Below the pieces are notes generated by a model. That model was not told where the DNA came from. It saw only the letters and a program-made list of their open reading frames with translations, and searched no databases. Made by a program: the position numbers and the translations under genes. Source: an uncultured Clostridia bacterium (GTDB lineage: Bacteria; Bacillota; Clostridia; TANB77; CAG-508). From it: a DNA stretch of 64,000 bases. Location: assembly GCA_947306755.1 (NCBI GenBank), contig CAMZHI010000003.1, positions 6,489 to 70,488 on the forward strand, in the 5' to 3' direction. Positions 40,165 to 58,570 of this stretch are shown piece after piece (position 1 is the stretch's first letter; every line of letters begins with the position of its first letter).

Positions 40165-42123
40165 CTACTCATATTTATATTCTTCACTATCTTCTGCAAC
40201 CATTAAGACATCATTATCTTCTTCATCAATTGAATATGTAATCTCATTCTTTTGATTCAATCTTTTCTTTAAATAATCTGATAAGTTTTTATCTGTACAA
40301 TAAATATAACAGCCTTTCTGTCCTCTTGTCATTAATGTTCTATATGTATTCTTAATTATTTCATCTGCTATTGTATTAGCTTTTTCAGAGTCCTCTCTAC
40401 TTAACTTATTAATACCTTTTATAGATTGATCTGTTTTAGCTCTTTTTGTTACATCTGTAATTATCTTACCATTCTCGTACCTTAAGTCATCTCCAATAAT
40501 TACACCAATATAATCAAATTCTAGTCCTTGAGCAGTATGTATACATCCAATTTCATTTACTGATTCAGCATCTATCGCCCATGTTTGGCTATTTCCAAGA
40601 TTCCAACTCATTGCAAAATCATATTCTGGAATAGTTATATCATATACATCTGTTTTGTTTTTTCCATCTTTTATCCAGTTCCAGCAATATCCTGCTAATA
40701 ATCTTGCTTTATTATTTATTTTATTTTTTTCAAGTATTAAATCTCTTACTTCGTTTGGAGTATCACATACCTTGATGTCATAATCCAAGTCAAAACCATC
40801 ACTATTGGCTGTCCTTCTAATTTCTAATACATCATCTAACCATGCAATATATCCATCTGAACCATTACATCTAAACTGCGATTCCAATTCCATTATTTCT
40901 GATTCTGCATTAGCTTGTTTTATATATTTTTGTATTTCATCAATACTCCCTATATCCTTTAAGGTTACTCTTTGTGATTCATCTATGAAAAATATTGAAA
41001 ATTTAGAAGCTTTAATAATCTCTTTTATTTGATTTTCTCCTAAGTTTTGAAACATTCCAGATTTCGCATTTAATCTATGTGCTTCATCTACAATTAAAAC
41101 ATCAAATTCATTTTCTGCAGATTCTACAAATGAACCCGAACCTTTAAATAAATTATTAATTCTTGTTTTTCTAAAATCTCCACTTAATTTAGTTGCATAT
41201 ACATTTCTTGGTGCTGCATTTTTTGTAACATATGAACAAACCATATTTTCATTAGTTAATTTTACTAAAAGATTAATTGCTAAAACTGATTTTCCCGTTC
41301 CAGGTCCACCTTTAACAACTAAAACTCTTTTATTTCCATCTCTATATGATTTCCTTGCCATTTCTAATGCTGTTTCATATACAAGTTTTTGATCATCTAT
41401 CATTACAAATTCTTCATTACCTTTTAACATACTTGTTAATGCATCTTGTAATGATTTAGAAGGTCTAATTTTTCCATTTTCAATCATATATAGTGTCTCT
41501 TTATCATCACCATATTTTATGTATCTATTTATAAAGTCTCTTAATTTTTCTACATCTCCCTTTATAAATGCAGGTGCTTTATCTAAGTAGTATTTATAAT
41601 TATCTGCTAATAATGTTGGAGGTGTTACTGTTAAATAATTATGAAGGTATGCACATGGATGTAAATCTATTTGTCTTTCTTGCACTGTTTCATTATAGTC
41701 TTCTATTGTTGTTGCATAAGACCATGCTTGATATGAAGGATGTGCTACTTCCCTTAATGCATGTCCTGTATACGCTTGTACAATTCCATCTTTCCCTTCA
41801 ACTATATCAGCCTCTGTCCATTGTTTTAATTCAACAATAATAGCAGTATTTTTAAGTTTTCCATCTTTACCTGTAATTATAAAATCTACTCTTTTAGATG
41901 TATTTGGAATTTTGAATTCAATTGCAATTCCTACATTCCCTGGTATATTGTTATCAATTAAAACTTTCATCATATATTGCATAGAATTATTCCATGCTTT
42001 TCTTTCATTTTGAGATGTATGATATCCCATCTTTTCATAAAATCTTCTATCTATATTTTCTTCAATTCTATCTTGCACAACATCTTCTACAAACAGTTGC
42101 TTTGTTGCTTCATATACTATCAT
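40165..42123 (-). CDS. DUF2075-type nuclease-helicase (N-terminal PD-(D/E)xK-like module plus SF1 P-loop ATPase)
   Basis: ORF 40165..42138 with start at MIVYEAT. VDFIITG...IIVELKQW (D..E.K), Walker A GGPGTGKS, Walker B LIVDEAHRL, C-terminal QGLEFDYIGVIIG. Confidence 0.75.
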   Translation of the reverse strand: MIVYEATKQLFVEDVVQDRIEENIDRRFYEKMGYHTSQNERKAWNNSMQYMMKVLIDNNIPGNVGIAIEFKIPNTSKRVDFIITGKDGKLKNTAIIVELKQWTEADIVEGKDGIVQAYTGHALREVAHPSYQAWSYATTIEDYNETVQERQIDLHPCAYLHNYLTVTPPTLLADNYKYYLDKAPAFIKGDVEKLRDFINRYIKYGDDKETLYMIENGKIRPSKSLQDALTSMLKGNEEFVMIDDQKLVYETALEMARKSYRDGNKRVLVVKGGPGTGKSVLAINLLVKLTNENMVCSYVTKNAAPRNVYATKLSGDFRKTRINNLFKGSGSFVESAENEFDVLIVDEAHRLNAKSGMFQNLGENQIKEIIKASKFSIFFIDESQRVTLKDIGSIDEIQKYIKQANAESEIMELESQFRCNGSDGYIAWLDDVLEIRRTANSDGFDLDYDIKVCDTPNEVRDLILEKNKINNKARLLAGYCWNWIKDGKNKTDVYDITIPEYDFAMSWNLGNSQTWAIDAESVNEIGCIHTAQGLEFDYIGVIIGDDLRYENGKIITDVTKRAKTDQSIKGINKLSREDSEKANTIADEIIKNTYRTLMTRGQKGCYIYCTDKNLSDYLKKRLNQKNEITYSIDEEDNDVLMVAEDSEEYKYE

Positions 42124-42154
42124 AATAATTGCCCCCATTAATTATTATTTACTT

Positions 42155-42730
42155 TTAATCTAATACATCAAATTGTCTGCTCACTTTAAGTCCCATTGTA
42201 TCATTATCATATGCTATACTAATATTAGCACATTCGCTCATAATATAATTCAATAACTTTAAGCTTTCTTCAAATTGTTTATTTAATTTTTCAAAATCTA
42301 AATCAAAAATTTCTTCCTCTTCTAGAGCATATACAACATCAATATGTCCAAACATTCTATCTCTGAATATCTTTATATTTTCTTCTAGTTCAACATATTC
42401 CTCAAGCTCCTTTCTTATTATTTTTACAACTTTATTTAAATCAGAAATACCTTCACTTTCACTTATATTCAAAAGTTTTACAATAGATGCACACGCTTTA
42501 TCTTTGTCAAACAAATTTCCCATGCCTATAACAATTCTGTATCTCATACTATCTAAAACAGTTCCAAATAATTTAGGATATTCATCAAATTTTTCAAGCA
42601 ACTCTTCATTTTCAATATCACAACATTTATTGTATTGAATTATGGCCTCTCTTATATTTTTGCATTCTAAATAAATTGTAGATAATACATTTTGTAATCT
42701 AGATGCCTTTTTTCCATTTATATATAACAT
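42155..42730 (-). CDS. Hypothetical protein, HEPN (AbiU2-like) candidate
   Basis: 191 aa. GNLFDKDKACASIVKLLN and FRDRMFGHID (R-x5-H) resemble the AbiU2-type HEPN pattern from memory. Confidence 0.4.
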   Translation of the reverse strand: MLYINGKKASRLQNVLSTIYLECKNIREAIIQYNKCCDIENEELLEKFDEYPKLFGTVLDSMRYRIVIGMGNLFDKDKACASIVKLLNISESEGISDLNKVVKIIRKELEEYVELEENIKIFRDRMFGHIDVVYALEEEEIFDLDFEKLNKQFEESLKLLNYIMSECANISIAYDNDTMGLKVSRQFDVLD

Positions 42731-43269: not shown

Positions 43270-43449
43270 ATGAAAAAAGTTGGAAGGCCAAAAGGAAAAA
43301 ATAAAGATACTCGCCTAAATATTATGATATCATCTGATTTAAAAAATGAATTTCAAAAAATAGTATCACAAAATGGTTCAAATGTTTCTGTAAAAATTTG
43401 TGAGCTTATTGTTAATTATATAAAAGAACAAAAGGAGGAAAATAAATGA
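43270..43449 (+). CDS. Small ribbon-helix-helix-like DNA-binding protein upstream of the methyltransferase
   Basis: ORF 43237..43449 with start at ATG (MKKVGRPKGKNKDTRLNIMISSDLKNEFQ) after AGGAGG. Overlaps the methyltransferase start (ATGA). Confidence 0.5.
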   Translation: MKKVGRPKGKNKDTRLNIMISSDLKNEFQKIVSQNGSNVSVKICELIVNYIKEQKEENK

Positions 43450-44579
43450 ATGTAATAGATTTATTTGCAGGATGTGGAGGTTTAAGTCTAGGTTTTGAAA
43501 TGGCTGGATTCAATATTCCTCTTGCAATTGAAAAAGACGAATGGGCGTCTGAAACATACAAAAAAAATCACCCTTCAACAAAAGTATTAACTGGTGATAT
43601 TACACAAATAGTTGATTTAGAAAATTTAATTTCAAAAAAAGATTTACCAATTGATGGAATAATTGGTGGTCCTCCTTGTCAAGGTTTTTCATTAAGTGGT
43701 AACAGAGATAAAAATGATCCCAGAAATAGTTTATTTATGGAATTCGTTAGATTCGTTAAATATTTTAAGCCAAAATTTTTTGTAATGGAAAATGTTACAG
43801 GAATTTTATCAATGAAAACAAAAGATAATAAAAGCGTAAAAGATCTTATTCTTTCAGAATATGATACTGCAGGATATAATGTTAAAATTTGTAGATTAAA
43901 TGCAGCTGAATACGGTGTTCCTCAATCTCGATTAAGAATTGTATTTATTGGTATTAGAAAAGATATACCTTTTAATGAAGAAAAAATAGGACCTATTCCG
44001 TTTTTATTTGGGAAAGACCAAGTTACAATAGAACAAGCAATTATGGACTTACCTCAAATAGATTCTGGTGAAGGAAAAGATTTTATAGAATATTCTCAAA
44101 AACCTAAAAGCAATTATCAAAAATGGGCTAGAAATAATAGCGATGGTGTATATAATCATATAGCAATGCGACATACTAAAAGACTCATTGAGCGTTTTAA
44201 AAATATAGACTTTGGGCAATCTGTTGCTGATGTCGATGAATGTCATCAACAAAGAAAAAGAGGTGATGCGTCAAAAATCAGTGGAAAAGTATTTTCACAA
44301 AATAATATGCGTCCATATCCAAATAAACCATCTCCTACTGTTCCAGCAAGTTTTCAAAGTAATTTTATACACCCGTACCTTAATCGTAATTTTACTGCAA
44401 GAGAAGGAGCAAGATTACAATCCTTCCCTGATACTTATATATTTTGTGGCAAAAGAACTACAATGTCTTGGGAAAAAAATCTTTCTCAATACCAACAAAT
44501 TGGCAATGCAGTACCTCCTCTATTAGCTAAAGCAATTGCTAAAAATATAATTGAATATATAAAAGAACTAGGATTTTAA
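43446..44579 (+). CDS. DNA (cytosine-5)-methyltransferase
   Basis: Motif I DLFAGCGG, motif IV GGPPCQGFS, ENV, QxRxR (QSRLR), and C-terminal QIGNAVPP. Confidence 0.95.
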   Translation: MNVIDLFAGCGGLSLGFEMAGFNIPLAIEKDEWASETYKKNHPSTKVLTGDITQIVDLENLISKKDLPIDGIIGGPPCQGFSLSGNRDKNDPRNSLFMEFVRFVKYFKPKFFVMENVTGILSMKTKDNKSVKDLILSEYDTAGYNVKICRLNAAEYGVPQSRLRIVFIGIRKDIPFNEEKIGPIPFLFGKDQVTIEQAIMDLPQIDSGEGKDFIEYSQKPKSNYQKWARNNSDGVYNHIAMRHTKRLIERFKNIDFGQSVADVDECHQQRKRGDASKISGKVFSQNNMRPYPNKPSPTVPASFQSNFIHPYLNRNFTAREGARLQSFPDTYIFCGKRTTMSWEKNLSQYQQIGNAVPPLLAKAIAKNIIEYIKELGF

Positions 44580-44598: not shown

Positions 44599-45393
44599 TT
44601 AATCATTCGGTTTCAATAACTTTCCAGGATATAATATTTCTTCGAATATAGTTGATTCATCAATTGCATTCACGATTTCTTCATAATATGATTTTAATAC
44701 CTTGAAAGAAATTGGATCTTCATTGTTATCTCCTCTATTTCTCAATACAAACATTTCATCTAATGCATTATCATGTCTAGCAGCTAATATTTTTTCTTCA
44801 GCCACAACAATACCTTCCATCAAAATATATGTTCTCGCATTAGGTGTTGCATTTTTTATTTGCATACTTGAATATTTAACCTCACCAAACATAGTAGCAT
44901 CTAAATATGTTTTAACCTCAACGCAAACTATTGGAATTATTAAATCTATTGAATTTTTACTATCAATTGTTATATTCACTTTTTTTCCTATACAAAAATC
45001 AACATCTTTTGTTAGAATATCTATATCAAGTTCATTATTAATTTTCATCCCGGCAAAAATACCTTTATTAAATATTCCTAAAGCCCCGCTTTTTATTGGC
45101 TCTATATCCTTAAATAAATATGTGCTAATCTCTTCTATAAAAGTAGATCTAAATTTTGATTGTGATTTTATACCTACTTCACTCTCAAATGTATTTATTT
45201 CGTTAATATAATCATCCATTATTTTTGCTGCTTTTTTAAATGTTTTCTCATCTTCACTAGAAAAAGTAATACTATTAAGTTTATCCTTGACTTTTAAATA
45301 TTTTTCTTCATAAAACTTTTTTATTTCTTCACCTTTCCCATTATAGTTGTTTCTTATTTTAGCTTGATAATTGTTTTCGTGTATATATAACAT
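44599..45393 (-). CDS. Probable type II restriction endonuclease (PD-(D/E)xK)
   Basis: Convergent with the m5C methyltransferase (19-nt gap). DLIIPIVCVEVKTYLD fits a D...E-x-K catalytic core. Confidence 0.55.
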   Translation of the reverse strand: MLYIHENNYQAKIRNNYNGKGEEIKKFYEEKYLKVKDKLNSITFSSEDEKTFKKAAKIMDDYINEINTFESEVGIKSQSKFRSTFIEEISTYLFKDIEPIKSGALGIFNKGIFAGMKINNELDIDILTKDVDFCIGKKVNITIDSKNSIDLIIPIVCVEVKTYLDATMFGEVKYSSMQIKNATPNARTYILMEGIVVAEEKILAARHDNALDEMFVLRNRGDNNEDPISFKVLKSYYEEIVNAIDESTIFEEILYPGKLLKPND

Positions 45394-45969: not shown

Positions 45970-46569
45970 ATGGATAATAATGATAAAAAAATTTGGAAAA
46001 AATGGTGGTTCTGGTCTATAATTTTTTTAATAATTATAATATCACCATTTATTAATACAAATAATCCCAATTCTAATCAAACTAATAATGAAACACAAAC
46101 TGTAAATGAACCTATAAATAATGAAGTAAAAGAAATTGAATATGCTGAAGATAATTTAATTAATAAATTCATTACTGATTTCAAATCTTCTTCAAGTTAT
46201 GAACTAACTGATATAGAGAAAGGAAACATTAATACTAAATATTTTGCTTATATAAATGGACAATACTGTGAGTTTTTAAACTCAACAGGATCTCTAGCTA
46301 ATTGTTTTAATATAACAATATATGGTGGAAATGAAGAAGAAGATATTAATAAAATAATTAATGTTTATAAAGAAGTAATAAAAGCTTTGGATTCAAGTAT
46401 TTCTGAATCATATATAAATGATGCTATTATGGAACATATTAAAAGTCCATCTAACAGTTTTAAAATTAATGATAGTATAAGTGTAAAATTATATCCTATT
46501 GTTGAATTATCTTATGGAAAATCTAAGTGTAAAATTGAAATAACGACAACAATTTATAATAAAAAATAA
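45970..46569 (+). CDS. Membrane-anchored hypothetical protein
   Basis: 199 aa. N-terminal TM WWFWSIIFLIIIISPFI followed by an N/T-rich linker. Confidence 0.45.
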   Translation: MDNNDKKIWKKWWFWSIIFLIIIISPFINTNNPNSNQTNNETQTVNEPINNEVKEIEYAEDNLINKFITDFKSSSSYELTDIEKGNINTKYFAYINGQYCEFLNSTGSLANCFNITIYGGNEEEDINKIINVYKEVIKALDSSISESYINDAIMEHIKSPSNSFKINDSISVKLYPIVELSYGKSKCKIEITTTIYNKK

Positions 46570-46740: not shown

Positions 46741-47264
46741 CAATAAACTGATCAAAAAAATCTGGTGGATATTGTCTTTGTTCATAATTTACATACCCAC
46801 TTTTGTATTTATTATTTTCTATTATATTCTTTTCTTTTATTTTTTCTTCTGTTCCGTTACCGTAACGTTACATCAACGTTATTTTCATTTTTCTGATTTT
46901 CTCTAAATCTTCTTTGTCTTTCTCTATTTTGTTCTAACATTTTTTCATATTTATCAGCACTTTGATACTTCTCCCAATTTTTAATTATGTATGTATTATT
47001 TTCAAATATAATCATTTCGCAATGGATTAACTTATCCAATATATTTTTAATTTTTTTGTTGGTTTTTTGTGTAATCTTTGCAAGATCTTCCACAGTTAAT
47101 GGTTGATTTGTTGAAAACATTATCTTTCCACCTTGCGCGCTTGTCCCAGCAATTGTTAATAATTGAATCCATATTCTAAATATTGTATCTCCATCACGCT
47201 CTTTTAATAATAGTTGAATTTTAGGATTTCCAAATATACTTGTAAAAATCTTAATCCATTGCAT
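46741..47264 (-). pseudogene. Phage replisome-organizer gene with a frameshift near its 3' end
   Basis: ORF 46857..47264 (MQWIKIFTSIFGNPKIQLLLKERDGDTIFRIWIQLLTIAG is typical of the replisome organizer N-terminus) stops at ..NVDVTLR*. The expected tail (NGTEEKIKEK...YVNYEQRQYPPDFFDQFIVNK*) continues in the +1 frame to 46741. Confidence 0.6.
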
Positions 47265-47281: not shown

Positions 47282-47485
47282 TTACTTATTTAATGAATTT
47301 TCTTCTTTTGCACTTAAGTATTCATCTAAAGCTTTAACTCTAAATAACACTCTTCCACCAACTCTTGCACATGGTATTTGTTTTCTTCTAACTAATTGAT
47401 TTACTAACCAATATGAAACTCCTAAATACTCAGCTGTTTCTTTCATTGTTAGTGTTATTCTTTCAACTTTTGGTAGTTCGTTCAT
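47282..47485 (-). CDS. Excisionase-family (MerR-like HTH) DNA-binding protein
   Basis: LTMKETAEYLGVSYWLVNQLVRRKQIPCARVGGRVLFRVKALDEYL matches the excisionase HTH pattern. Confidence 0.8.
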   Translation of the reverse strand: MNELPKVERITLTMKETAEYLGVSYWLVNQLVRRKQIPCARVGGRVLFRVKALDEYLSAKEENSLNK

Positions 47486-47575: not shown

Positions 47576-47706
47576 AATGTTTTTTTGTTATATGCTTTGT
47601 ATAATGTAACTAGCTAATTACTAATTGTTATTTTAATTGTCTATTTAAGAATTAAAAACCATACAAATGAAAAAAATATTTATTTTTGAGTTGTAGGGGG
47701 TATTTT

Positions 47707-48693
47707 ATGATTTCAAATATTGAAATGTTTTTTGATTTTAAAAATTCTAAAGAATACATTTCTAGCTATTCATTAGAAAAAGTTGACGATAATAAAATAA
47801 GAATAAAAACAACTTATCCAAAGAAACAAGAATTAGGAAACTTTTTACTAGATTTTATGAACACAGAGTTTAATGACCATATAGATTTTACTATTTTTGT
47901 TAAAGATTATCTATTTATTCATTTATTAAGCTTATATGATAATACTATTGTAGGTGATATGAATAATTATTCTGTTGTATTAAATAGAGAATATTTACAA
48001 GACTTTATTGACTGGATATATGATGAATTATCATTAGATTTTTCAATGCTTAAAATTAGATTAGAACAAGTTTTTACAAATAGCTATTATAAGAACATCT
48101 TAAATATTACTGATATTTTAGATAAGGATTATGATATTATAGAAGACCTTGCTGAAAAAGAACATAATTACTCTGCTATAAACACTATATTAGAAGAAAA
48201 TCCTACATTATTTATAAATTATAATTTAAACACATTTTTTATGAACAATATACCTGAAAACCTATCAGCAAATTACACATTTTCTTCGGATTCTGTTGAA
48301 AACTTTTTATACTGTATTGTAAAAGAATTAATAAGTAATATTAAGAATATAAAATTTGAATGTTGTAAAAATTGTAACTATTGGTTTATACACACTAAAA
48401 ACAAAGAACAGCAATATTGTGATGACCTATATACTGATACTAAAACTTGTTTTGAAATTGCAAAAGAAGAACGTGATAGAAAAAATGAAAAAGATGATAT
48501 TTTTTTGCAAAAATGCAGAAAAAGATATAAAAATTTGCACAAACAAATCTCAATAGGTGCTTCTGAAAAAGTAGAAAATCGTTTTAGAATTTTTAAAGAA
48601 GAATATCCTGTTTATCAGAAAAGATATAAAGAAGGATTAATAACAGGTGAAGAATTGATGGATTGGCTTGAATTCATGAGATCAAAAAAATAA
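47707..48693 (+). CDS. Hypothetical mobile-element protein with a C-terminal Cys cluster
   Basis: ORF 47686..48693 with start at ATG (MISNIEMFFDF) after GGGGG. Contains CCKNCNYWF...YCDD...CFE. Confidence 0.5.
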   Translation: MISNIEMFFDFKNSKEYISSYSLEKVDDNKIRIKTTYPKKQELGNFLLDFMNTEFNDHIDFTIFVKDYLFIHLLSLYDNTIVGDMNNYSVVLNREYLQDFIDWIYDELSLDFSMLKIRLEQVFTNSYYKNILNITDILDKDYDIIEDLAEKEHNYSAINTILEENPTLFINYNLNTFFMNNIPENLSANYTFSSDSVENFLYCIVKELISNIKNIKFECCKNCNYWFIHTKNKEQQYCDDLYTDTKTCFEIAKEERDRKNEKDDIFLQKCRKRYKNLHKQISIGASEKVENRFRIFKEEYPVYQKRYKEGLITGEELMDWLEFMRSKK

Positions 48694-48710
48694 AACTAAA
48701 TATTTTAGTT

Positions 48711-49745
48711 TTATTTTTTTTCAAATACTTTATTATCTCCTAAATATGTAGTAGCATTGGTTTTCAGCATTATTATTTTATTTTCAAGTAAATCTAAAAA
48801 ATTAAGATTTTCATATACAACATTTCTTAATTCTTCATAGTTAATTGCTACAATTATGGTACCGTTCATTAAATAATTTGCATTTGCTACTTTCAATGCT
48901 GGTTTGGTTGGATCTTTTATTGCAACTATAATACCACTCTTTGATTTAAATATATTCAAAATCCCTTGTATTTTGTGATAATATGTATTTCCTGGACTTG
49001 ATTTTTCATTTTTGCATTCTACAATAATTAGACTTCCTAATTCATTTAAAAAATATGGTATTCCAATTCTCAATTTATTTTTAACTAAACAATCAATTTC
49101 ATTTGTTTCTGTCCTGACATTAGCAGATTCAAAAACTTTAACTATTCTTAAAACATATTCTGTAAAATCTCTTAATTGATTTCCCAAAGCCGTAGTATTA
49201 TTTTCTTTTTGTCCTATTTTTTCAAATAATTTTATCATGTCATTTTTTTGTTCTTCTGTAGGTCTATAAAAAATGTCATTTGGGTTTAAAATCTTATCCT
49301 CAAAAAATCCTCTTAAAGAATCTGTATCAGTATAACTCAAATTTTTTTTTATATTATTTGAATCAATTATATCTGATTCAATTTTCTTTTTTTTATATAA
49401 TATTTGAATATCCTCATCTGTTATTTCCAAATTCTCAAATTCACAAGCATCACAATTATTAATATCATTAATCTCATTGTACAAATCTTCTATTGAAACA
49501 ATTTTTATAACATGATTACATTCTGGACATTTTATAGCATATCTACGCTCTAAAATATCTAAACTAACAGAATCTTCTAAAATAGATTTTGCCATACTAA
49601 ATTCAATGTCCAATTCATTAGTTGCTTTTGCTATTGAAATCCTGTCACTTATCCTCGATGGAATGTTATATAACCATGAATCATATTTTTCAATTATTTT
49701 TTTGTCATATTTTTTTTCAAGAGTTAATAATGTTTGATAATACAT
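48711..49745 (-). CDS. Zinc-ribbon protein with C-terminal PD-(D/E)xK (Mrr-like) nuclease domain
   Basis: CPECNHVI...CDACEFENL ribbon. NEIDCLVKN...LIIVECKNEK fits a D...E-x-K core, followed by GIIVAIK...ANANY as in Mrr-type catalytic domains. Confidence 0.55.
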   Translation of the reverse strand: MYYQTLLTLEKKYDKKIIEKYDSWLYNIPSRISDRISIAKATNELDIEFSMAKSILEDSVSLDILERRYAIKCPECNHVIKIVSIEDLYNEINDINNCDACEFENLEITDEDIQILYKKKKIESDIIDSNNIKKNLSYTDTDSLRGFFEDKILNPNDIFYRPTEEQKNDMIKLFEKIGQKENNTTALGNQLRDFTEYVLRIVKVFESANVRTETNEIDCLVKNKLRIGIPYFLNELGSLIIVECKNEKSSPGNTYYHKIQGILNIFKSKSGIIVAIKDPTKPALKVANANYLMNGTIIVAINYEELRNVVYENLNFLDLLENKIIMLKTNATTYLGDNKVFEKK

Positions 49746-50880
49746 TATTTATATCCTCCTCTATTACATAAGCTTCAAACCTTACGCAACAAAATTTTCT
49801 TTTTACCGAAATTTTAGCTCTAAAAGTATTTGAATTAAAATGTCCCTTTTGCTTTCTAGCATAAACTAAAAATATTCCATCACACGTTCCTTCATATTTT
49901 ATTGATTTTTTGTTGTCAAAAAACTTTTCTTTACATTGTAAAGGTTCATGTGATGTAGTTGTTTCTTCTACCTTAGTCATTTCACTATCTGTAGCAATTA
50001 ATTTATATGGATACGCTTCTCTGTCATTCATAAAAATATCTTTATTTTTAATATTTATTGAAATATATTTTTCAATAAATATTTTCATATCTTCTTTTGC
50101 TTTCTCAAAATTTATAGGATTATTAATTTCTAACATATCTAAAGTAGTATTTATAAAAGAGTCTATATATTCATCCATTTCAACAATTTTATTTTCAATT
50201 GATTCAGGCGTAAATGTATATTTTTCTAAAATATTATAAATTGACTTTTTTACGCTTTCAATATATTCTTCTTTATCTATTTTTTTTGCATTAAGATTCT
50301 TTTCAACATATTCAACAGCTTCTATTATAAGATTATCTGTTGAAGTATTATATCCTATTTCATCTATGTTTTCCGAACTTACTGTATGAATATTAGTTTT
50401 GGATTTTGCCCTACCAAAAATTAATTTTTTATTTAAATCAATATCTACAAATATAGGATAAATTATTCTGCTTTTTACATCTTTTTTTTCTTCGATCAAA
50501 AAAATAGTAAAAACAAATTCAATTTTATTATTAATAATATTCATACTTTGTAAATTAAGTCCATTTCCTTTTGTAATATTAGAATATAATTTTCTATTTC
50601 TACATTCTTTAAATGTTTGCTGAAGTGTATCATAGTTAGGTTTTGTTGTAAATTCAATCTTCCTAAACAAAATATTTTTCATTCCTTGTTTTAAAACTAC
50701 CTCTAACCAATCTTCAACCTTTGATTTATTTTCATTATTTTCTTGTGCAAATTCATTTATTGCTTTTAACAAATCCATTCTCATACATTGACTTTTTATT
50801 TTGTTATTAGTACAAAATTCTATTAAAACAGGATTAGTAATATAATTTTCCGTTTCATTAGCCCAACAATCTGGTATCAT
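49717..50880 (-). CDS. Hypothetical 387-aa protein, translationally coupled to the nuclease gene
   Basis: No recognisable motif. Its 3' end overlaps the start of 48711..49745 by 29 nt. Confidence 0.5.
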   Translation of the reverse strand: MIPDCWANETENYITNPVLIEFCTNNKIKSQCMRMDLLKAINEFAQENNENKSKVEDWLEVVLKQGMKNILFRKIEFTTKPNYDTLQQTFKECRNRKLYSNITKGNGLNLQSMNIINNKIEFVFTIFLIEEKKDVKSRIIYPIFVDIDLNKKLIFGRAKSKTNIHTVSSENIDEIGYNTSTDNLIIEAVEYVEKNLNAKKIDKEEYIESVKKSIYNILEKYTFTPESIENKIVEMDEYIDSFINTTLDMLEINNPINFEKAKEDMKIFIEKYISINIKNKDIFMNDREAYPYKLIATDSEMTKVEETTTSHEPLQCKEKFFDNKKSIKYEGTCDGIFLVYARKQKGHFNSNTFRAKISVKRKFCCVRFEAYVIEEDINNVLSNIINS

Positions 50881-50946
50881 TATTATTCCCCCTCATTTTA
50901 CATTTTATTATAATATTTTTTTGTTTTTTTTTCAATATAGTATTCC

Positions 50947-50981
50947 ACAAATTACAAAATTTGTTAAATCTTGTAATTTGT
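50947..50981. promoter_or_regulatory. Perfect 11-bp inverted repeat ACAAATTACAA-N13-TTGTAATTTGT in a divergent promoter region
   Basis: Lies between the two-gene module (minus strand) and the integrase gene (plus strand). The right arm abuts a TATAAT. Confidence 0.45.
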
Positions 50982-51115
50982 TATAATTTTTCCCCCGAAT
51001 AAAACTAATTCTAATTATTATTAAATTGTCGGGTTTTGTTTTCTTTTTCCACCATGCTACAATAAAATCATAGTAATACACTCTATTACTAAATAAAACG
51101 AAAGGAGGCAAAAAG

Positions 51116-52312
51116 TTGACTGGTAGTATTGAAAAGCATGGAAAGAACAGTTACAGATTAGTAGTATTTAAAGGCTATGATTTAGATGGAAAATCTATAA
51201 AACATCAAAAAACAATACACTGTAAAAATAAATCAGAAGCAAGAACAGAACTTGCAAAATACATTGCACAAGTAGAAAATGGATTTGTAGTTGATGGAAC
51301 TGTCCCAACATTTAAAGAATTCGTTGAAATATGGAAAAGAGATTATGGACTAAAAGAACTTGCACCATCTACATATAGCAGATATAAAGGAATGTTAGAT
51401 TCTAGAATTCTTCCCTACTTCGGACATTTTAAGTTAAATAAAATAAGACCTATTGATATTATGCAGTTTTACAACTTGCTAGATGAAGACACACAAATAG
51501 TTAGAAAGAAAAACAACAATGGAAAGAAAACAAGAAAGCCATTATCAAAGAAAACAATTTTAGAACATCATAGACTTTTGCACGCAATGCTAACTAAAGC
51601 TGTTTATTGGCAAATGATTGTAAATAATCCTGCAGAACGAGTGCAACCACCTAAAGCACCTAAACCAAAAAGAGATTGCTATGATGAAGTACAGACTAGA
51701 ATTCTAATTGATAATTTAGAAAAACTAACAGGTAATGACATCAAATACAAAGTTGCAGTTTTACTAGACATATTCATAGGTGCAAGGCTCGGAGAACTAG
51801 CTGGACTTGAATGGTCTGACATAGATTTAAAAAACGGAATTATCAGCATAAACAAATCAAGTCAATATTTATCTGACAAAGGAATATTTACCAAAAGTCC
51901 TAAAACAGAAAGTTCAATTCGTGAAGTCGCTATCCCCGATTTTATCGTTTCTTTACTTGAGGAATATAAGTTATGGTATGAAGAACAAAAATCGATTGTA
52001 GGCGATTTCTGGCACGATTCTGATAGGTTGTTTGTACAAGTAGATGGCAAACCAATTACACCATCAACAATTAGTAAATGGTTTGAAAAATTTATTAAGC
52101 AAATTGGCTTACCTGTTATAACATTTCACGGCTTACGCCATACAAATGCAACATTGCTTATAGCTCAACAAGTAGATGTAGCAACTGTATCGGCAAGACT
52201 TGGTCATGCGCAAATTACTACAACCTATAATTTTTATGTACATCCTTTAAAATCACACGATAAACACGCAGGAAATGTACTAGAAAATTTATTAGTTACA
52301 AACGCACATTAA
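51116..52312 (+). CDS. Tyrosine site-specific integrase
   Basis: N-terminal SAM-like/AP2-like domain. Catalytic region GARLGE...HGLRHTNATLL...LGHAQITTTYNFYVH (R, HxxR, Y). TTG start after AAAGGAGG. Confidence 0.9.
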   Translation: MTGSIEKHGKNSYRLVVFKGYDLDGKSIKHQKTIHCKNKSEARTELAKYIAQVENGFVVDGTVPTFKEFVEIWKRDYGLKELAPSTYSRYKGMLDSRILPYFGHFKLNKIRPIDIMQFYNLLDEDTQIVRKKNNNGKKTRKPLSKKTILEHHRLLHAMLTKAVYWQMIVNNPAERVQPPKAPKPKRDCYDEVQTRILIDNLEKLTGNDIKYKVAVLLDIFIGARLGELAGLEWSDIDLKNGIISINKSSQYLSDKGIFTKSPKTESSIREVAIPDFIVSLLEEYKLWYEEQKSIVGDFWHDSDRLFVQVDGKPITPSTISKWFEKFIKQIGLPVITFHGLRHTNATLLIAQQVDVATVSARLGHAQITTTYNFYVHPLKSHDKHAGNVLENLLVTNAH

Positions 52313-52678: not shown

Positions 52679-52777
52679 CTTCTTTAAGAAGCGGCTATTA
52701 TTTTAAGTACAACTTGCCTAGTACCTCAAAATATGGTATTTATTAAATATCAAAGGTCGCAGTAGGAGGTGTAGAAA

Positions 52778-53032
52778 ATGGATCAAGCTTTAAATGATTT
52801 TATAAACAAAAGGATAGACAGCAATTATGACAGGTTACGACAGGATAAAGAATGGAGTACAACTAATGAAGAATATAAGAAATTCTATAATGAACTGTAT
52901 CACAAATTACCAGTTGAACAGAAGGAGCAATTAGATAACATTATCGACTTGAAGAATAACCTAATAGATTATGAAAGCGTCTTTGCATATAGAATTGGTA
53001 TAAATGATATGTTAAAGTTATTTAAGTTATAA
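52778..53032 (+). CDS. Small mobile-element protein (family of 34701..34991)
   Basis: 84 aa with an AGGAGG RBS, followed by the hairpin AGAGTGT...ACACTCT. Confidence 0.45.
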   Translation: MDQALNDFINKRIDSNYDRLRQDKEWSTTNEEYKKFYNELYHKLPVEQKEQLDNIIDLKNNLIDYESVFAYRIGINDMLKLFKL

Positions 53033-53211
53033 TTTTATTTTTGTCTGCTATTATAATAAACCCTAATGAGAGTGTATCCCTTAACACTCTTATTTTTTAT
53101 GTGCAATTACAATTATAAGCACACTTTGAAAACTGCGTAAAATAATGGTATTTATTATGTTAGATAGTTATATTTTATGAACTAATCAATATGAATAAGG
53201 AAGGTGTTAAG

Positions 53212-53613
53212 ATGTCAGTTATTACAAAGCAAGAGATTAATACCATTAATGGTAAATGTAACAACGGTTGGTACTTGGATGTACAATATTATATGTTTCA
53301 TAATGAGAGGACCTTAATTAAGCAAATACCTATTGATGATGAATATTATCTTGAATTTAGGTTGTGTTACAGCAATAGAAAGCAAATAATAGTCCATATA
53401 AGCAAGTTTCGTAAAGAACCTAACAAGAATTATGCTGTAACTACTGGAATGGGTAAAACGGCAATTATAGATGAAACAGAGTACAAGAGAAAGAACATCA
53501 ATAATCTGTTTACATTTACAAACAGACTAACTAATCTCAAGTTAATGGATTTAAACAACAAGACAAAGGTTAATAGTGGCTATGGGTTAATTATGCCTAG
53601 TGAAGAATTTTAA
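53212..53613 (+). CDS. Hypothetical protein
   Basis: ORF 53191..53613 with start at ATG (MSVITKQ) after AAGGAAGG. Confidence 0.4.
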   Translation: MSVITKQEINTINGKCNNGWYLDVQYYMFHNERTLIKQIPIDDEYYLEFRLCYSNRKQIIVHISKFRKEPNKNYAVTTGMGKTAIIDETEYKRKNINNLFTFTNRLTNLKLMDLNNKTKVNSGYGLIMPSEEF

Positions 53614-53635
53614 TGTATGAAAGGAGATTAGAATA

Positions 53636-53905
53636 TTGTCAGCAGAGATTATAAAGGATATAAATACAAATTATGTTGATGGGCCTAGTACAATGCCAAG
53701 GAAATATTTTTTGTTGAATGATAGGATAGAAGTATTACATACTCAATTAAGACAGAGATTAAAGAGTAAGAAGGATAAGAAGAAACTGGACAAGTTAGTA
53801 GATATAATTTCACAAACAAATTCTATGGAATGTGATGAACAATTTGTATCTGGATTTGTGTTAGCAACTCGCATTATGTCAGAAGTATTAAATTATAAAA
53901 TATAA
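53636..53905 (+). CDS. Small mobile-element protein (family of 34701..34991)
   Basis: 89 aa, TTG start after AAAGGAG. Central LRQRLKSKKDKKKLDKLVD and C-terminal FVSGFVLATRIM. Confidence 0.4.
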   Translation: MSAEIIKDINTNYVDGPSTMPRKYFLLNDRIEVLHTQLRQRLKSKKDKKKLDKLVDIISQTNSMECDEQFVSGFVLATRIMSEVLNYKI

Positions 53906-54127
53906 TCAAATAAGAATATAGCAGATGGATCAAGTCTATCTGCTATGATAATATTATGCTATATTGCTTGTAGGACTTTACTGTTGCCACTGTGAAGCAT
54001 TATAATATAATAGGTTGAAAATTTTTCGCCATATAGTACATATATCTTAAAATCAAAGTTCGTTACTTTACTCATATTTAATAATAATTACTTGTAGATA
54101 GCAATGACTAATATTTACTATAAGAAT

Positions 54128-54355
54128 TTACTCTCTTGTTAGCAAGTCAGATATATCACATTCTAGTGCTTCGCATAACTCATCTAAATCTTGATATAAA
54201 ACAGACTTATTAACTTGATTTATCATATTCTGAAAATTAGTATAGTTCATTAGCTTTTCGCCCTTAATAGCACGAATATTATTTAATTTATTGAATAAAG
54301 CATATCTTGTATAACCTCTGCTCTCTAATAATGAAATAACATTTAATTTCAACAT
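54128..54355 (-). CDS. Small Cro/CI-type HTH transcriptional regulator
   Basis: 75 aa. The LLESRGYTRYALFNKL...ELCEALECDISDLL pattern is that of short XRE-like regulators. Confidence 0.55.
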   Translation of the reverse strand: MLKLNVISLLESRGYTRYALFNKLNNIRAIKGEKLMNYTNFQNMINQVNKSVLYQDLDELCEALECDISDLLTRE

Positions 54356-54561
54356 AGTTGTAACCCCTTTGTATTAATATTTGAATACAGTCTATAAAAT
54401 ATTCACAAAAAAGATAACTCTTTTAAGAATGCTCACTTAACTATTTACTTTTTGAATATTTTATGGTATATTGTATTTAATAATTTCAAAAAATGTTGTA
54501 TAATGTCATTAGAGATAAAAACATTAAAATTAATAAAAAATTACAAAGGAGGAAATGTATT

Positions 54562-55989
54562 ATGTTTTGTTCGAATTGTGGTAAAGAAGTTTCAAATAGT
54601 CAAAATTATTGTGAATATTGCGGAACTAAAGTAATGAAAAATAATATCAATAAAGATACCAGTATAAAGTTAGATGAATTAGAAATAAATAATGTAATTA
54701 AAACAAAGGCTAAAAACAATACATCATCAAAAGAAATTCAGAAAAATGTAATAAGAATTTCTTTTACCAAGTTTATACTACTAGTAGTGTTATTTGTGTT
54801 GTTTTTTATAATACTAATATCAATTTCAACTTTAAGTAGAAATAGTAAGACGGTAAGTCAAAATAATTCAATAAATATAGAAATCCCAAGTTTTAATAAC
54901 AATATTAATATTTCTGGAATAACACAAGAAGAACGACAAGAATTAACATCAATATTAAAGAATTTTAATTCCTCAAGATATAATTGTAAATTGACAGATA
55001 AAATTGGAAAATACTATCAAGATTTCGGGATGTTTTACACTATATCAGAGTCGAGAACCAATATAAACGAAAAGGGTTATATCGATGAATTATACTATAG
55101 TCTTATTGATAAAAAAAACAATGAAAATAAAAGTATAGAAGTAAATTTAACTTATACTTTTGACAATAAAGGTAGACCTATTAAAATCCGATTTGATGAT
55201 ACTAAATCTACTGTTATTGAATATAACGCTTTTTCAAAAAATGCTTTATACGAAATATCTTACTTAGATAACGGAATGATAGAAACTATAAATTGTACTC
55301 TATATAAGGATAATACAAGAGTAGAGTATCATTTTTCTTATAAGGAAAATAATGACTATGACAAGATTAAAGTATTATTTTATGGTAAGGATTATGTTAA
55401 AGATGCTAATCATCTAATATCATTTGACTATTTAGATAACAAAATTTTGATGTCCAAAGGCGAAGGTATAAAATTTTATTTTCAAAAAGATGATATGATA
55501 AGTCAAAATAGTCTATCAGAATACTTTAATACACTGTTATTTCAATCGTTTATAGAAATAGATGAAACAACAATAATTAACCAGAATCGAATTCCATTAT
55601 TGGAAATATTCTTTCCATTTACAATAAAGAAATCACTTTACTGTAAATACATAAGTGAATTTTATTATTCATATAATGAAGATGGACTTGAAGATATGTC
55701 ATATAATAGCGACTATACAATAAAATCAAAATATGATTATATAAAAGCTGATAACAAGCTAATGAAGATTGAAACTAATTATAAAGATAATAATGTCACA
55801 AAATCATATACCATTTTTACTTATAATGAACATAATCAAATAGAAAGTATTTATGAAGTAAATAATATTGAAGATTTTAAGAAAAGTGCCAACACTAAAA
55901 AGTATCTTATGCAGATTTGGGGTAAAGATAGTAAGTTCTTAAGTAGAGAGTTTTATACATTTTGCAGTAATTATCGGAGAAGTTATTGA
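54562..55989 (+). CDS. Zinc-ribbon, single-pass membrane protein with large extracytoplasmic domain
   Basis: ORF 54493..55989 with start at ATG (MFCSNCGKEVSNSQNYCEYCG) after AAGGAGG. TM is FILLVVLFVLFFIILISI. Confidence 0.55.
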   Translation: MFCSNCGKEVSNSQNYCEYCGTKVMKNNINKDTSIKLDELEINNVIKTKAKNNTSSKEIQKNVIRISFTKFILLVVLFVLFFIILISISTLSRNSKTVSQNNSINIEIPSFNNNINISGITQEERQELTSILKNFNSSRYNCKLTDKIGKYYQDFGMFYTISESRTNINEKGYIDELYYSLIDKKNNENKSIEVNLTYTFDNKGRPIKIRFDDTKSTVIEYNAFSKNALYEISYLDNGMIETINCTLYKDNTRVEYHFSYKENNDYDKIKVLFYGKDYVKDANHLISFDYLDNKILMSKGEGIKFYFQKDDMISQNSLSEYFNTLLFQSFIEIDETTIINQNRIPLLEIFFPFTIKKSLYCKYISEFYYSYNEDGLEDMSYNSDYTIKSKYDYIKADNKLMKIETNYKDNNVTKSYTIFTYNEHNQIESIYEVNNIEDFKKSANTKKYLMQIWGKDSKFLSREFYTFCSNYRRSY

Positions 55990-56391
55990 CTCATACACTA
56001 CTGAAGATTGCTATGCTAATATTGTTTTGATAGAAGATAGCAAATATGATAGCGTATACAAAGAACTATCAAAAGATGATAGAATTTCAAGAATAATAAA
56101 TGATAGACAAACATTAGAAGAATATCAAGAAGGTTTAAAAGAAGGGTTAGATTAGTCAAAGAATGATTAAAATATAAAAAAAAAACTATATCATTTATTG
56201 TTTAAATTGTGAAAAAATATCAGATATGATAGCATTTATAAAAATTGATCAAAAACGCTAAAATTTCAAATGTAATAACCAATAGACAAGCTTTAGAATA
56301 TTATCAAGAAGCGGTTAGTTTAAATTTTGATTAAAAATTGTAATTGAAACTTGTAAAGAGTTATCAAATAAAAATATTAGGAGGAATGAAA

Positions 56392-56610
56392 ATGAAAGAG
56401 AAGAAGAAAATACCTTTATGGGCTGATATTATAATTGCAGTGGTAATTGCTGGAATAGTAATTATAGTTTTATCTACAATTAATGATTATCAAAGAGAGA
56501 AAAAGAGAAAAATGTATTATGAACAATATACAAGTAATTCAAGCAACATTAATAATGTAAATTCTAATAAAACTAGAGTTTTGGATCCATCTACATATAC
56601 ACCAGAATAA
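56392..56610 (+). CDS. Small single-pass membrane protein
   Basis: ORF 56344..56610 with start at ATG (MKEKKKIPLWADIIIAVVIAGIVIIVL), 7 nt after AGGAGG. Confidence 0.45.
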   Translation: MKEKKKIPLWADIIIAVVIAGIVIIVLSTINDYQREKKRKMYYEQYTSNSSNINNVNSNKTRVLDPSTYTPE

Positions 56611-56679
56611 AAATCCTAAAATTGAGTACAAATGGCGATAGTTTTATATTTCTGATATTTAAATAATGGGTGAATCACA

Positions 56680-57855
56680 ATGGAAATTAAAACTTATGGA
56701 GCTAATAAAATTGGTGGATGTATAACAGAAATTAGAAGCGGAAACACTAGAATAATTTTTGATTATGGGAATAATTTAGATGATTCTCCTCAAATAGACC
56801 TTGAAGGCTTAACCTATGGAACACCACAATATAATGCAGTGTTTATATCACACTACCATCTCGACCATATAGGCGCTATTGATAGAGTATTGAAAGATAT
56901 CCCTATTTATATAGAGAAAACAACAAAGATACTTTATGACATTATCTGTGATTTTCAAAGTAAACCAAGAGTCAATGTAAAAACATTTGCTTTTAATAAA
57001 CCTATTACTCTTTTAAATGATATAAAGATTACACCTTATTTGGTGGATCACTCTGCTTATAATTCCTGTATGTTTGTAATAGATGATGGCAAAGAAAAAG
57101 CACTGTATACGGGAGATTTCAGAAACAACGGATATACTGGTAATAGATTACTACCTACATTTGAAGCAATAGGAAAAGTGGATTACCTAATTACAGAAGG
57201 CACCAATATTACAAACGATAACACTCATATTATTAGAAAAGAGAGTAGTCTTGTAAATGATTTTGTAAGAATAATACAAAAATATAATCAAGTCCTTGTA
57301 TTGATGTCTGCATCTAATATTGATAGAGTTACAACACTATTAAAGGCTTGTAATAAAACAGGCCATACTTTAATTGAAGATATTTATATGGCACATCTCA
57401 CGACAACAATATTTAAGACTGATAATGTTAATGTTCCTAATCCTATAAGTTACGATAATGTTATGGTTTATAAGCCTATTTATTTTAACAAGAAGGACAC
57501 AGAGGTTAAGGATAAGTATTTGAACTGTTTTAATGATAAGAATAATAGCGACATGTTATATAAGCCGTTCATTATGAATATTAGAACAAGTATGCTAGGC
57601 GATTTAAGGATGTTTAAGAGAAAGCATATCTTGACTAATTCTTGTCTAATTTATTCAATGTGGGATGGATACAAGCAACAAGAAGATATAAAGAACTTCT
57701 TAAAGTCTGTTAAAGCACTAGGTATTACAATAATAGAAACAGATATACACGCAACAGGACACGCAAGTAAAGAACTTCTAAAAGAGATTATAGAAATTAC
57801 TGGCTGTTCAAAAGTTTATATTATTCATTCTAATTTAAAAGCTAATAAAAATTGA
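56680..57855 (+). CDS. Metallo-beta-lactamase-fold hydrolase
   Basis: The HxHxDH motif SHYHLDHIG, later DHSAYNS and TGDF motifs, and a C-terminal HATGHAS. Confidence 0.7.
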   Translation: MEIKTYGANKIGGCITEIRSGNTRIIFDYGNNLDDSPQIDLEGLTYGTPQYNAVFISHYHLDHIGAIDRVLKDIPIYIEKTTKILYDIICDFQSKPRVNVKTFAFNKPITLLNDIKITPYLVDHSAYNSCMFVIDDGKEKALYTGDFRNNGYTGNRLLPTFEAIGKVDYLITEGTNITNDNTHIIRKESSLVNDFVRIIQKYNQVLVLMSASNIDRVTTLLKACNKTGHTLIEDIYMAHLTTTIFKTDNVNVPNPISYDNVMVYKPIYFNKKDTEVKDKYLNCFNDKNNSDMLYKPFIMNIRTSMLGDLRMFKRKHILTNSCLIYSMWDGYKQQEDIKNFLKSVKALGITIIETDIHATGHASKELLKEIIEITGCSKVYIIHSNLKANKN

Positions 57856-58230
57856 TACAAAGATTTTTTGAAATGAAAAATATAATGAGATATTATTCGT
57901 AGTTAAAGATGGAAGTGACAATGTTAAAATTATAAAACTACTCTTATATCGGCCGAAAGATATAGTTTTATAAATAAAGTGTCAGAAATCATAGGAATTA
58001 CAATATCATATTGTACCTATAACTTCCTCGAGAATTGGAAATAAAAATATTCTTAATAATAAGAAGAAAGAAAATATTATTAATATTAGTTATGCTACCA
58101 TAAATAATAATTTTATCAATAATGATAATATTAATGTTTATGCTATTGCCAATGGTAATATTAAAGAGAAAGAGAATTTGAAGTTTTACGATAAGATAAA
58201 AAAGAATGATATACTAATGATAAAATGATA

Positions 58231-58284
58231 ATGCTATGTAAATATATGAACGTAAGATTCCAAAATAAATACAATGCACCTATC
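58231..58284. repeat. Direct repeat copy 1 in the non-coding region
   Basis: ATGCTATGT-AAATATATGAACGTAAGATTCCAAAATAAATACAA.. About 85 percent identical to 58571-58640, which carries a 16-nt insertion. Confidence 0.7.
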
Positions 58285-58570
58285 ATTAATTAAAATGTAA
58301 AATAAAGTGTCGGTTTATTAAAAACAATACACATATAAGTACAATAAAGATTACATATTACAAAGTTAACACAAACTATATTAAGTAAAAGTCAAACTGG
58401 TAAAATGTTAAATTAAAAATTAGTTAGAGATTAAAGTTATAACTCTAATATAGAAAAGTATAAAATAAATAAAATATAGATTAAAATGAAGTTAATCTAC
58501 ATAATGTTGATAATTAAGATAATAAAAATAAAGTAGATAGAAAGAAAGAGAATTATATTAGTTTAAAGGT

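Follow-up and report, generated by a model that had tools for sequence, protein, structure and literature searches.

Two overlapping genes, here called A and B, lie on the minus strand of a 64,000-nt stretch of DNA from an uncultured Clostridia bacterium (GenBank assembly GCA_947306755.1, contig CAMZHI010000003.1). This whole stretch is referred to as the window. Coordinates are positions in the window unless another locus is named. The window is low in G+C, approximately 21-34% per 1-kb step and mostly 23-30%. We consider it fairly probable that the two genes are an undescribed phage-borne defence module, which would act as an anti-phage, abortive-infection, or superinfection-exclusion system. 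The first-pass annotation of this DNA had called them a plausible novel sensor-plus-nuclease defence pair, and the core of this idea withstood all computational tests applied to it. The pairing, the nuclease, the lack of a match to existing models, the genomic context, and an exchange of the effector domain in one clade speak for this, and the anti-phage function is what we infer from them.

The paired genes and their cassette

Gene A (49717..50880, minus strand) encodes a protein of 387 amino acids (aa), the proposed DNA-binding sensor or regulator. Gene B (48711..49745, minus strand) encodes a protein of 344 aa, which is proposed to be an adaptor plus effector. The two genes share 29 nt (49717-49745), as had been annotated, and an overlap is seen again in nearly all of the other loci, typically 29-32 nt by the called genes. 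The ribosome-binding site of B (GAGGAGG, 49755..49761, minus strand) is found 9 nt 5' of its ATG and sits within conserved EED codons at the 3' end of A, where E374 and D376 are nearly invariant. Because this site lies inside codons of A, translation of B is suggested to be coupled to that of A.

The pair is found well beyond this genome. A profile search with A against 1.84 billion cluster representatives gave 271 matches in total. Of the 150 that were listed, every full-length relative has about 400 aa and the same architecture, and the shorter ones seem to be fragments. A set of 36 distinct loci was gathered from assemblies and genomes (L001-L037, L016 being the same as L008). Of these, L001-L009 came from contig look-ups for four A homologues and L010-L037 from a genome scan. 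A relative of B lies directly downstream of the A relative, on the same strand, in 36 of 36 loci, down to 29% identity. The genome scan, with one genome per species, contributed 28 A loci, each with a B relative directly downstream. The same arrangement is present at all 33 A loci on IMG/VR viral contigs. Two look-ups were started from distant Lachnospiraceae relatives of B, and in both an A gene of about 401-403 aa precedes with an overlap of 32 nt. Four distant A relatives (C. perfringens, C. butyricum, a Bacillota metagenome-assembled genome (MAG), and Hungatella) always have an overlapping partner of about 350 aa next to them, and these partners are 31-35% identical to B over the full length. 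When B is represented by its first 125 aa, its distance matrix correlates with that of A (r = 0.91), and the trees are congruent. A and B show strict co-occurrence and co-divergence, and they are a genuine operon-like pair. Whether the two proteins co-occur outside this genome had been raised as a point that could count against the earlier proposal, and the pair does recur at each of these loci.

Protein B appears to be a nuclease with two modules in front of it. Its AlphaFold2 (AF2) model (predicted local distance difference test score (pLDDT) 86.7, predicted template modelling score (pTM) 0.80) has four parts. These are a winged-helix-like domain (aa 1-61; 49563..49745), a zinc ribbon (aa 65-119; 49389..49553), a disordered linker, and an alpha/beta domain (aa 184-333; 48747..49196), with all coordinates on the minus strand. 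The winged-helix-like domain is predicted from the secondary structure of the model. The B family profile matches the winged-helix protein eS25 weakly in a profile search of the PDB (E 0.05), and Pfam Ribosomal_S25 matches B relatives below threshold. The putative zinc ribbon has four cysteines, C73 and C76 in CPEC (aa 73-76) and C98 and C101 in CDAC (aa 98-101), on modelled beta-hairpins. Across 54 relatives of B the last three of these (C76, C98, and C101) never vary, and conservation of C73 is at least 90%.

The alpha/beta domain is predicted to be a PD-(D/E)xK nuclease (D218, E243, and K245), from its conservation and its predicted fold. D218, E243, C244, K245, N246, and E247 are invariant in the same 54 relatives, down to 25% identity. 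D218 and E243-C-K245 fall in the predicted strands 216-223 and 239-245. In Foldseek searches the domain matched the Rpb5 N-terminal domain (probability 1.0) and NucC (6q1h/6p7p, probability 0.95-0.97), and further matches were to MspJI, Can1, EcoT38I, and Cdn1. The first-pass annotation had reported two CxxC pairs and an Mrr-like core, and CPEC, CDAC, NEIDCLV, IIVECKNEK, and GIIVAIK are all present as quoted. Its description of B as a zinc-ribbon plus PD-(D/E)xK protein agrees with the conservation of the cysteines and catalytic residues and with the predicted fold. The Mrr-like core matches the Pfam family Mrr_cat (PF04471) only below threshold (17.3 bits against a gathering threshold of 21, E 5e-3, aa 234-307), and it is the predicted fold and the invariant D...ExK residues that confirm the nuclease domain. 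B is a credible active PD-(D/E)xK nuclease, as far as the model indicates, with two N-terminal modules that may bind nucleic acid or protein. Another family, PF26783/DUF8255, had been listed with faint precomputed matches on some relatives of B, and it was set aside when our own Pfam scans did not reproduce them.

In one clade the nuclease is replaced by a different effector. The clade consists of L008/L016, L017, L030, L032, and L037, and of viral L068, L069, L070, L072, L076, and L082. Its membrane-type partner proteins are 260-298 aa long. The winged helix and the four-cysteine ribbon are kept and the ExK motif is gone. In place of the ExK domain there is a charged linker and then hydrophobic helices of about 20-25 residues each. 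A hydropathy scan predicted one or two helices per protein, and two can be seen by eye in L008, L017, and L030. These partners are encoded at 9184-9990 in L008, 9175-10044 in L017, 9169-9957 in L030, 9178-9984 in L032, and 9166-9981 in L037. Those of L008, L017, and L030 are directly upstream of the terminase small-subunit gene (terS). These partners form a monophyletic group in the B tree, and their A proteins can be as little as about 40% identical to each other. Because the clade is monophyletic and old, the membrane version appears to have been maintained by selection. A constant sensor and adaptor combined with alternative toxic effectors is characteristic of abortive-infection immunity, as in CBASS, Thoeris, Pycsar, retrons, and Avs. 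The effector swap therefore strengthens the defence reading, and it is hard to square with a role in packaging, recombination, or homing.

The swap has a bearing on two other explanations. The first is a toxin-antitoxin (TA) or addiction module, in which B would be the toxin and A a large antitoxin, and which would stabilise the carrier with no dedicated anti-phage role. An overlapping two-gene operon with its own promoter, an effector domain that is exchangeable and potentially toxic, an occurrence on mobile elements only, and the tight co-divergence of A and B would all be in line with it. However, A is about 400 aa with a highly conserved length and a complex fold, which is unlike typical labile antitoxins. 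The regulator-first gene order and the SAP-like region described below fit a sensor equally well. Many TA modules are abortive-infection systems, so this explanation overlaps with defence rather than excluding it. As a separate explanation we regard it as unlikely.

The second is an atypical restriction enzyme, either modification-dependent (type IV) or associated with a methyltransferase (MTase), with B cleaving and A recognising the DNA. The sub-threshold match to Mrr_cat and the fold matches to MspJI and EcoT38I could be taken this way. Restriction-modification (R-M) genes are also adjacent to the pair in the window and in L039-L047, and a D12 MTase is among the two nearest neighbours in 4 of the 36 loci. 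The membrane-helix variant, however, cannot restrict DNA. There is no consistently linked MTase, and the adjacent R-M pairs are complete (C5 MTase with a Bpu10I-like enzyme; D12 MTase with AlwI). No known modified-base reader domain (such as SRA or YTH) and no NTPase domain was found in A by Pfam scans of the window protein and its family. Restriction appears to be a very unlikely function for the pair.

Protein A had been described as having no recognisable motif. This does not hold, since a SAP-like N-terminus and a fold weakly like that of RdgC and CENP-N were found. The AF2 model of A is confident (pLDDT 90.2, pTM 0.87) and begins with a helical region at the N-terminus, followed by a beta-rich half, a helical insert, and then the second half, which is alpha/beta. 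The putative SAP-like helix-extended-helix region (about aa 13-47; 50740..50844, minus strand) is proposed from the SAP profile matches of relatives. PF18953 (SAP_new25) matches 9 of 45 family members (best 8e-6) and PF02037 (SAP) matches 3 of 45; A of the window has no SAP match at E<=1 in the Pfam scan. One relative carries the NCBI name 'SAP domain-containing'. The A family profile also matches the SAP domain of Ku70 (1jjr) with E 0.017 in the PDB profile search. In PDB sequence searches with single sequences and profiles of A and B, the Ku70 SAP and eS25 hints were the only ones obtained.

The body of A (aa 68-386; 49723..50679, minus strand) is modelled as two beta-sheet/helix halves around the helical insert. 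Foldseek searches of the PDB with A matched CENP-N (7pkn_N, E 3e-4, probability 0.99, template modelling (TM) score 0.29/0.33) and E. coli RdgC (2owl_A, E 1.4e-3, probability 1.0, TM 0.33/0.41). The RdgC-type fold matches as a whole have probabilities of 0.97-1.0 but weak TM scores of 0.30-0.41, with a root-mean-square deviation of 9-11 Å. Phage proteins named 'Exonuclease' were among the best matches in BFVD (probability 0.98, TM 0.35). That name is perhaps taken from the Pfam entry for RdgC ('Putative exonuclease, RdgC'). None of 45 members of the A family matches PF04381 (RdgC). Homology of A to RdgC at the sequence level was rejected, as hhalign gave a probability of 0.06% for the A profile against E. 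coli RdgC. At most, the modelled fold would make A and RdgC distant fold relatives. The conserved motifs of A are rich in lysine and arginine (GRAKSKSN and FFDNKK), and no catalytic signature could be recognised among them. We take A to be a putative non-enzymatic nucleic-acid-binding protein, with DNA as the presumed ligand.

Together the genes form a self-contained cassette (about 2.25 kb) with its own sigma-A-type promoter, gene A, the coupled gene B, and a hairpin. The promoter-like site (50907..50935, minus strand) has TTGAAA and TATAAT at a spacing of 17 nt, with 11 of 12 matches, and is the best of the region. A strong ribosome-binding site of gene A, TGAGGGGG (50888..50895, minus strand), lies 7 nt 5' of the ATG at 50880. 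Like that of gene B, it was read from the sequence, and its GGGGG run is invariant in an alignment of four loci. The -35, -10, and ribosome-binding block 5' of A and both genes are kept in L010, L011, and L039. The DNA further upstream is unrelated in L011 and L039. Because these parts stay conserved where the farther-upstream DNA differs, the mobile unit appears to be the promoter with A and B. At the other end there is a hairpin of A+T only (48684..48720) with 17-nt arms and a 3-nt loop. It covers the stop codon of B as well as that of the convergent DUF6076 gene, and its perfect inverted-repeat registers are 48684-48690 paired with 48704-48710. A terminator scan based on G+C did not call it. 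The hairpin is likely the shared terminator of B and the DUF6076 gene.

A perfect 11-nt inverted repeat had been placed in the promoter region of the module. The repeat is present, with arms at 50947-50957 and 50971-50981, and it extends to 16-nt arms (50947-50962 and 50966-50981) with 94% complementarity. The occurrence of at least one such 11-nt repeat is modestly above chance (P=0.024 for a 235-nt region of the same dinucleotide make-up). The whole window has seven such inverted-repeat loci with 22 registers, against about two registers expected. Its assignment to the module promoter did not hold up, as the repeat is kept in L010, where the integrase is the neighbour, and is not conserved in L011 or L039, where the cassette with its promoter has a different location. 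It overlaps TGTTATAAT, a TGnTATAAT element at 50979-50987 on the plus strand that faces the integrase. The inverted repeat (50947..50981) probably belongs to the promoter or regulation of the integrase and not to the module. It was rejected as an operator of A and B because it is kept only where the integrase is the neighbour and is not conserved with the cassette. Also among the seven loci of the window are perfect inverted repeats of 14 nt at 50050-50083 inside gene A and at 40124-40156 near the start of a helicase gene.

Carriers and proposed function

The cassette is carried by temperate phages, prophages, and small integrative elements of Clostridia. Relatives of A are present in 5 of 50,697 GenBank phage records, where a B relative follows A. 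In Clostridium phage vB_CpeS-CP51 the pair is phiCP51_0027/0028, both annotated as hypothetical, and lies between an amidase/PH-domain protein and the integrase. In Coprococcus phage NatCom_10489 it lies between the terminase large-subunit gene (terL) and the portal gene. A is also found in Coprococcus phage NatCom_24345 and Blautia phage NatCom_27009. No near-identical DNA was found in GenBank phages, and no relatives of A were found on plasmids. The carriers are almost all Clostridia, with one bin labelled Bacteroidaceae and one labelled Paenibacillaceae, which may be binning artefacts. The first of these labels occurs at L010 (CAVFFR010000051.1, 'Bacteroidaceae bacterium'), which has the same integrase-A-B arrangement as the window with identities of 86% for A and 76% for B. 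A MAG binning error is the likeliest explanation for the L010 label.

The neighbours of the pair were counted as Pfam families, with two nearest open reading frames (ORFs) on each side, for 143 neighbours at 36 non-redundant loci. The commonest families were terminase subunits, portal, ClpP, endolysins, D12 MTase, integrases/recombinases, and cI-type helix-turn-helix (HTH) proteins. A terminase or portal gene is among the two nearest neighbours in about 16 of the 36 loci, and the pair is placed between same-strand terL and portal genes in at least five loci (L019, L020, L053, L062, and L067). In phages its position varies. It can be found after the lysin, beside the integrase, before terS, and between terL and portal. 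These phage and mobile-element neighbours indicate that the cassette is phage accessory cargo at several classical moron sites. Known defence genes or mobile-element hotspots were also seen to adjoin the pair when neighbours were inspected, which is a qualitative result. The first-pass annotation had placed the pair in a cargo slot next to the integrase. Defence and mobile-element cargo does surround it, but the module is mainly phage-borne and is not typical of integrative-element cargo slots.

In phage CP51 and in prophages of C. perfringens, the endolysin gene is followed by that of a 212-aa bacterial PH-domain protein (bPH_3/PH_gly_zipper), which lies immediately upstream of the pair. Its gene is at 7051-7689 or 5706-6344 in L001/L002/L003 and at 5027-5665 in L052. 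PH_gly_zipper proteins are also found near the pair in L049 and L050. This may be an accessory or exclusion gene.

A function for the carrier phage itself could be suggested by these positions. The pair could be a packaging helper, like the HNH proteins beside terminases, or serve in recombination and end protection, host-DNA degradation, or counter-defence. The frequent terminase and portal neighbours and the recurrent terL-portal position would agree with this, and RdgC and Ku-type SAP domains belong to recombination or end-binding proteins. However, the element of the window and its relatives carry the pair without structural or packaging genes, and core functions do not move within phages as this pair does. 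In the clade that is still located just before terS, membrane helices replace the nuclease. The family is also rare, as the count of phage records indicates. A phage-serving function is rather unlikely.

The insertion between conserved phage genes (terL and portal, or before terS) also resembles that of free-standing homing endonuclease genes, and B joins DNA-binding modules to a nuclease. The pair could then be a selfish homing-type cassette that spreads by cutting phage genomes without the cassette and is of no use to the host. Homing endonucleases, however, do not come with a conserved 400-aa partner gene, and membrane-type variants have no nuclease. The cassette also has its own promoter and occurs outside phage cores. 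We find homing highly improbable. The phage-function, restriction, and homing explanations are all weakened by the membrane-type clade and by the carriers that have no packaging genes.

The proposed defence mechanism is as follows. A, with its SAP-like motif and RdgC/CENP-N-like body, would be the sensor or regulator, a non-enzymatic protein that binds nucleic acid. It would associate with the winged-helix plus zinc-ribbon N-terminal module of B; an interaction of the two proteins is suggested by the gene overlap and the co-divergence. When A meets an infection signal, this would free or switch on the C-terminal effector of B. Our best guess is that the signal consists of ends of foreign DNA, of intermediates in replication or recombination, or of a phage protein that works on these. 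In the window the PD-(D/E)xK effector would cut DNA, the presumed target of the nuclease. In the sister clade the one or two predicted membrane helices would damage the membrane.

A bolder form of this proposal is possible, and it is rather doubtful at present. A would found a new class of infection sensor, a SAP plus RdgC/CENP-N-like DNA clamp that recognises free ends or phage replication/recombination intermediates and signals through the winged-helix/zinc-ribbon adaptor to swappable effectors. The system would have no homology to described ones, and temperate phages of gut and clostridial Bacillota would have invented and spread it as a weapon against other phages.

Several findings weigh against defence. 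The resemblance of A to RdgC and CENP-N is weak (TM 0.3-0.4) and has no sequence support. Many copies lie in or beside the phage packaging module, which also fits a phage-serving function, and the D12 MTase neighbours leave room for a restriction-type function. Several copies appear pseudogenised, with A truncated in L021/L022 and split in L045 and B split in L035. Finally, a newer description of the pair is possible.

Compared with E. coli and Bacillus, Clostridia and gut Lachnospiraceae have been little explored for defence systems. Actual phages of C. perfringens, Coprococcus, and Blautia carry the cassette, so it probably influences which phages are able to superinfect lysogens. This would matter for the ecology of gut phages and for phage therapy against C. 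perfringens. Should A prove to be a sensor, an RdgC/CENP-N-like fold would be added to those known from immune sensors. If the proposal is true, alternative effectors are coupled to a sensor through the winged-helix/zinc-ribbon module, which would be a new adaptor. With its small size (2.25 kb), its own promoter, and its clear catalytic residues, the pair lends itself to a direct test of the hypothesis.

Likeness to described systems

The pair had been annotated as uncharacterised, and this agrees with the libraries. Neither protein is above threshold in PADLOC 2.0, Pfam-A, or NCBIfam (June 2026). Searches with A, B, and the whole family alignments gave nothing above threshold in Pfam, PHROGs, NCBIfam, or PADLOC. 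In PADLOC-DB 2.0.0 (2023) A has no match, and its relatives have just single, scattered weak matches. B gave only PDC-S02 there (E 0.014 over 52 residues), in 3 of 54 members, which is not a consistent match. Literature word searches (RdgC, SAP, and Clostridium with defence) did not return a description of the pair, and a recent one is possible. The pair is provisionally regarded as undescribed, as set apart by PADLOC 2.0 (2023) and the word searches. A sensor-plus-effector defence operon on mobile elements is of a known kind; both protein families and the adaptor are new.

In its logic the pair comes nearest to Shedu/KELShedu and to abortive-infection systems that swap effectors, and by membership it falls into none of the families tested. 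B and its 54 relatives had no DUF4263/PF14082 match at E<=1 and no PADLOC Shedu match. In KELShedu a protein that binds double-stranded DNA and a nuclease form a complex and act by abortive infection (bioRxiv 10.1101/2025.09.13.674623). Shedu and KELShedu resemble A and B in having a PD-(D/E)xK effector with an N-terminal regulatory module, and the same logic is proposed here. The proteins differ. KELA is a 12.6-kDa WYL-like protein, whereas A is 387 aa and SAP-like plus RdgC-like. KELB has a beta-sheet N-terminal domain, whereas B has a winged helix and a zinc ribbon. In the sections of the same preprint that were consulted, no nuclease-to-membrane swap like that of the A+B family is reported.

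The nuclease fold of B is also like those of NucC, Can1, and Cdn1 of CBASS and type III CRISPR, with low TM scores of 0.28-0.41. The constant module of the family with a nuclease or membrane effector is similar to the effector swapping of CBASS, Thoeris, and Pycsar. Unlike CBASS and type III CRISPR, no cyclase, CARF, SAVED, or nucleotide-signal domain was found in A or B. The constant module of B also differs from CBASS-type swapping in that it consists of a winged helix and a zinc ribbon, to which the effector is fused.

Structurally, A is matched best by RdgC (PF04381; PDB 2owl and 2owy) and the related CENP-L/N fold, along almost the whole protein. RdgC is a ring protein that binds double-stranded DNA, as reported in structure papers of 2007. 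Unlike RdgC, A has the extra SAP-like N-terminus and a long helical insert, with no sequence relationship. The RdgC gene stands alone on the chromosome and, unlike A, has no nuclease partner. Mrr-type (type IV) restriction endonucleases share with B a D...ExK core preceded by a winged-helix-type DNA-binding region, and Mrr_cat, although sub-threshold, is the Pfam model nearest to B. Unlike those enzymes, B has an obligate partner gene, a zinc ribbon, and a membrane-helix replacement in one clade.

Defence hotspots in prophages and satellites have been described for P2 and P4 of E. coli (Rousset et al. 2022, PMC9122126). The cassette is similar in being variable accessory cargo at fixed sites of temperate phages and satellites, next to integrases and following the lysis genes at the end of the genome. 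It differs in that its carriers are Clostridia phages and a small int/xis/replisome-organiser element, and in that it is also found around terminase genes.

Surroundings in the window and a sister element

In the window the pair lies between regulatory/replication genes and an integrase, as had been annotated. The tyrosine integrase gene (51116..52312, plus strand) matches PF00589 with 2.5e-26. On the other side are the DUF6076 gene (47686..48693, plus strand), which is convergent with gene B, and genes for an HTH_17/Tn916-Xis-like protein (47282..47485, minus strand) and a Phage_rep_org_N (replisome organiser) protein (46857..47264, minus strand). No tRNA gene was found in the window. A direct-repeat search for att sites over 28-53 kb gave just A+T-rich, chance-like pairs, and the far boundary of the element was not located by it.

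A run of defence-type genes occupies the 15 kb to the left of the pair. These are a Fic gene with an N-terminal HTH (36666-37598), a 470-aa CoiA_N-like protein (38689-40101), a Schlafen-group-3/DUF2075-like helicase (40165-42138), and HEPN AbiU2 (42155-42730) directly after the helicase. The helicase and HEPN AbiU2 may be a system of their own. A type II R-M pair follows, with a C5 MTase (43446-44579) and a Bpu10I-like restriction endonuclease (44599-45393). Between this pair and the replication genes there is a 199-aa protein (45970-46569) with a hydrophobic N-terminal segment. It has weak PHROG matches, including 'superinfection exclusion' phrog_4980 (E 5.5e-4). Further left are a transposon-encoded TnpV gene (34208-34687) and a phage-type DUF5131 gene (33154-33987).

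A sister element carries an A that is 81% identical and the same DUF6076/HTH_17/replisome-organiser backbone, with A and B at another place. There the pair lies next to UvrD plus a KAP NTPase and a D12 MTase plus an AlwI restriction endonuclease, which this element carries instead of the cargo seen in the window. D12-class (Dam-like) MTase genes recur near the pair in unrelated carriers, in L004 (11989-12744), L006 (10301-11158), L008 (6995-7750), and L039 (6657-7790). The one in L039 is part of an AlwI R-M pair, and those in L004, L006, and L008 look like orphans.

Some copies of the pair appear pseudogenised or frameshifted. A is truncated at 135 aa in L021/L022 and is 225 aa in L036, and the partner in L063 is 186 aa. 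B is split into two ORFs at 9187-10208 in L035, and A is split in L045. Assembly errors are possible for these copies.

A second small mobile element seems to follow the first integrase (52700-62539). It includes two DUF6809 genes, each preceded by one of two similar repeats (52700-52745 and 53112-53157, 72%), a Cro/C1 HTH protein, a 498-aa zinc-ribbon membrane protein, and an MBL-fold protein (56680-57855). At its end are a Pox_D5-like fragment (58845-59447), an HTH protein, and a second tyrosine integrase (61325-62539).

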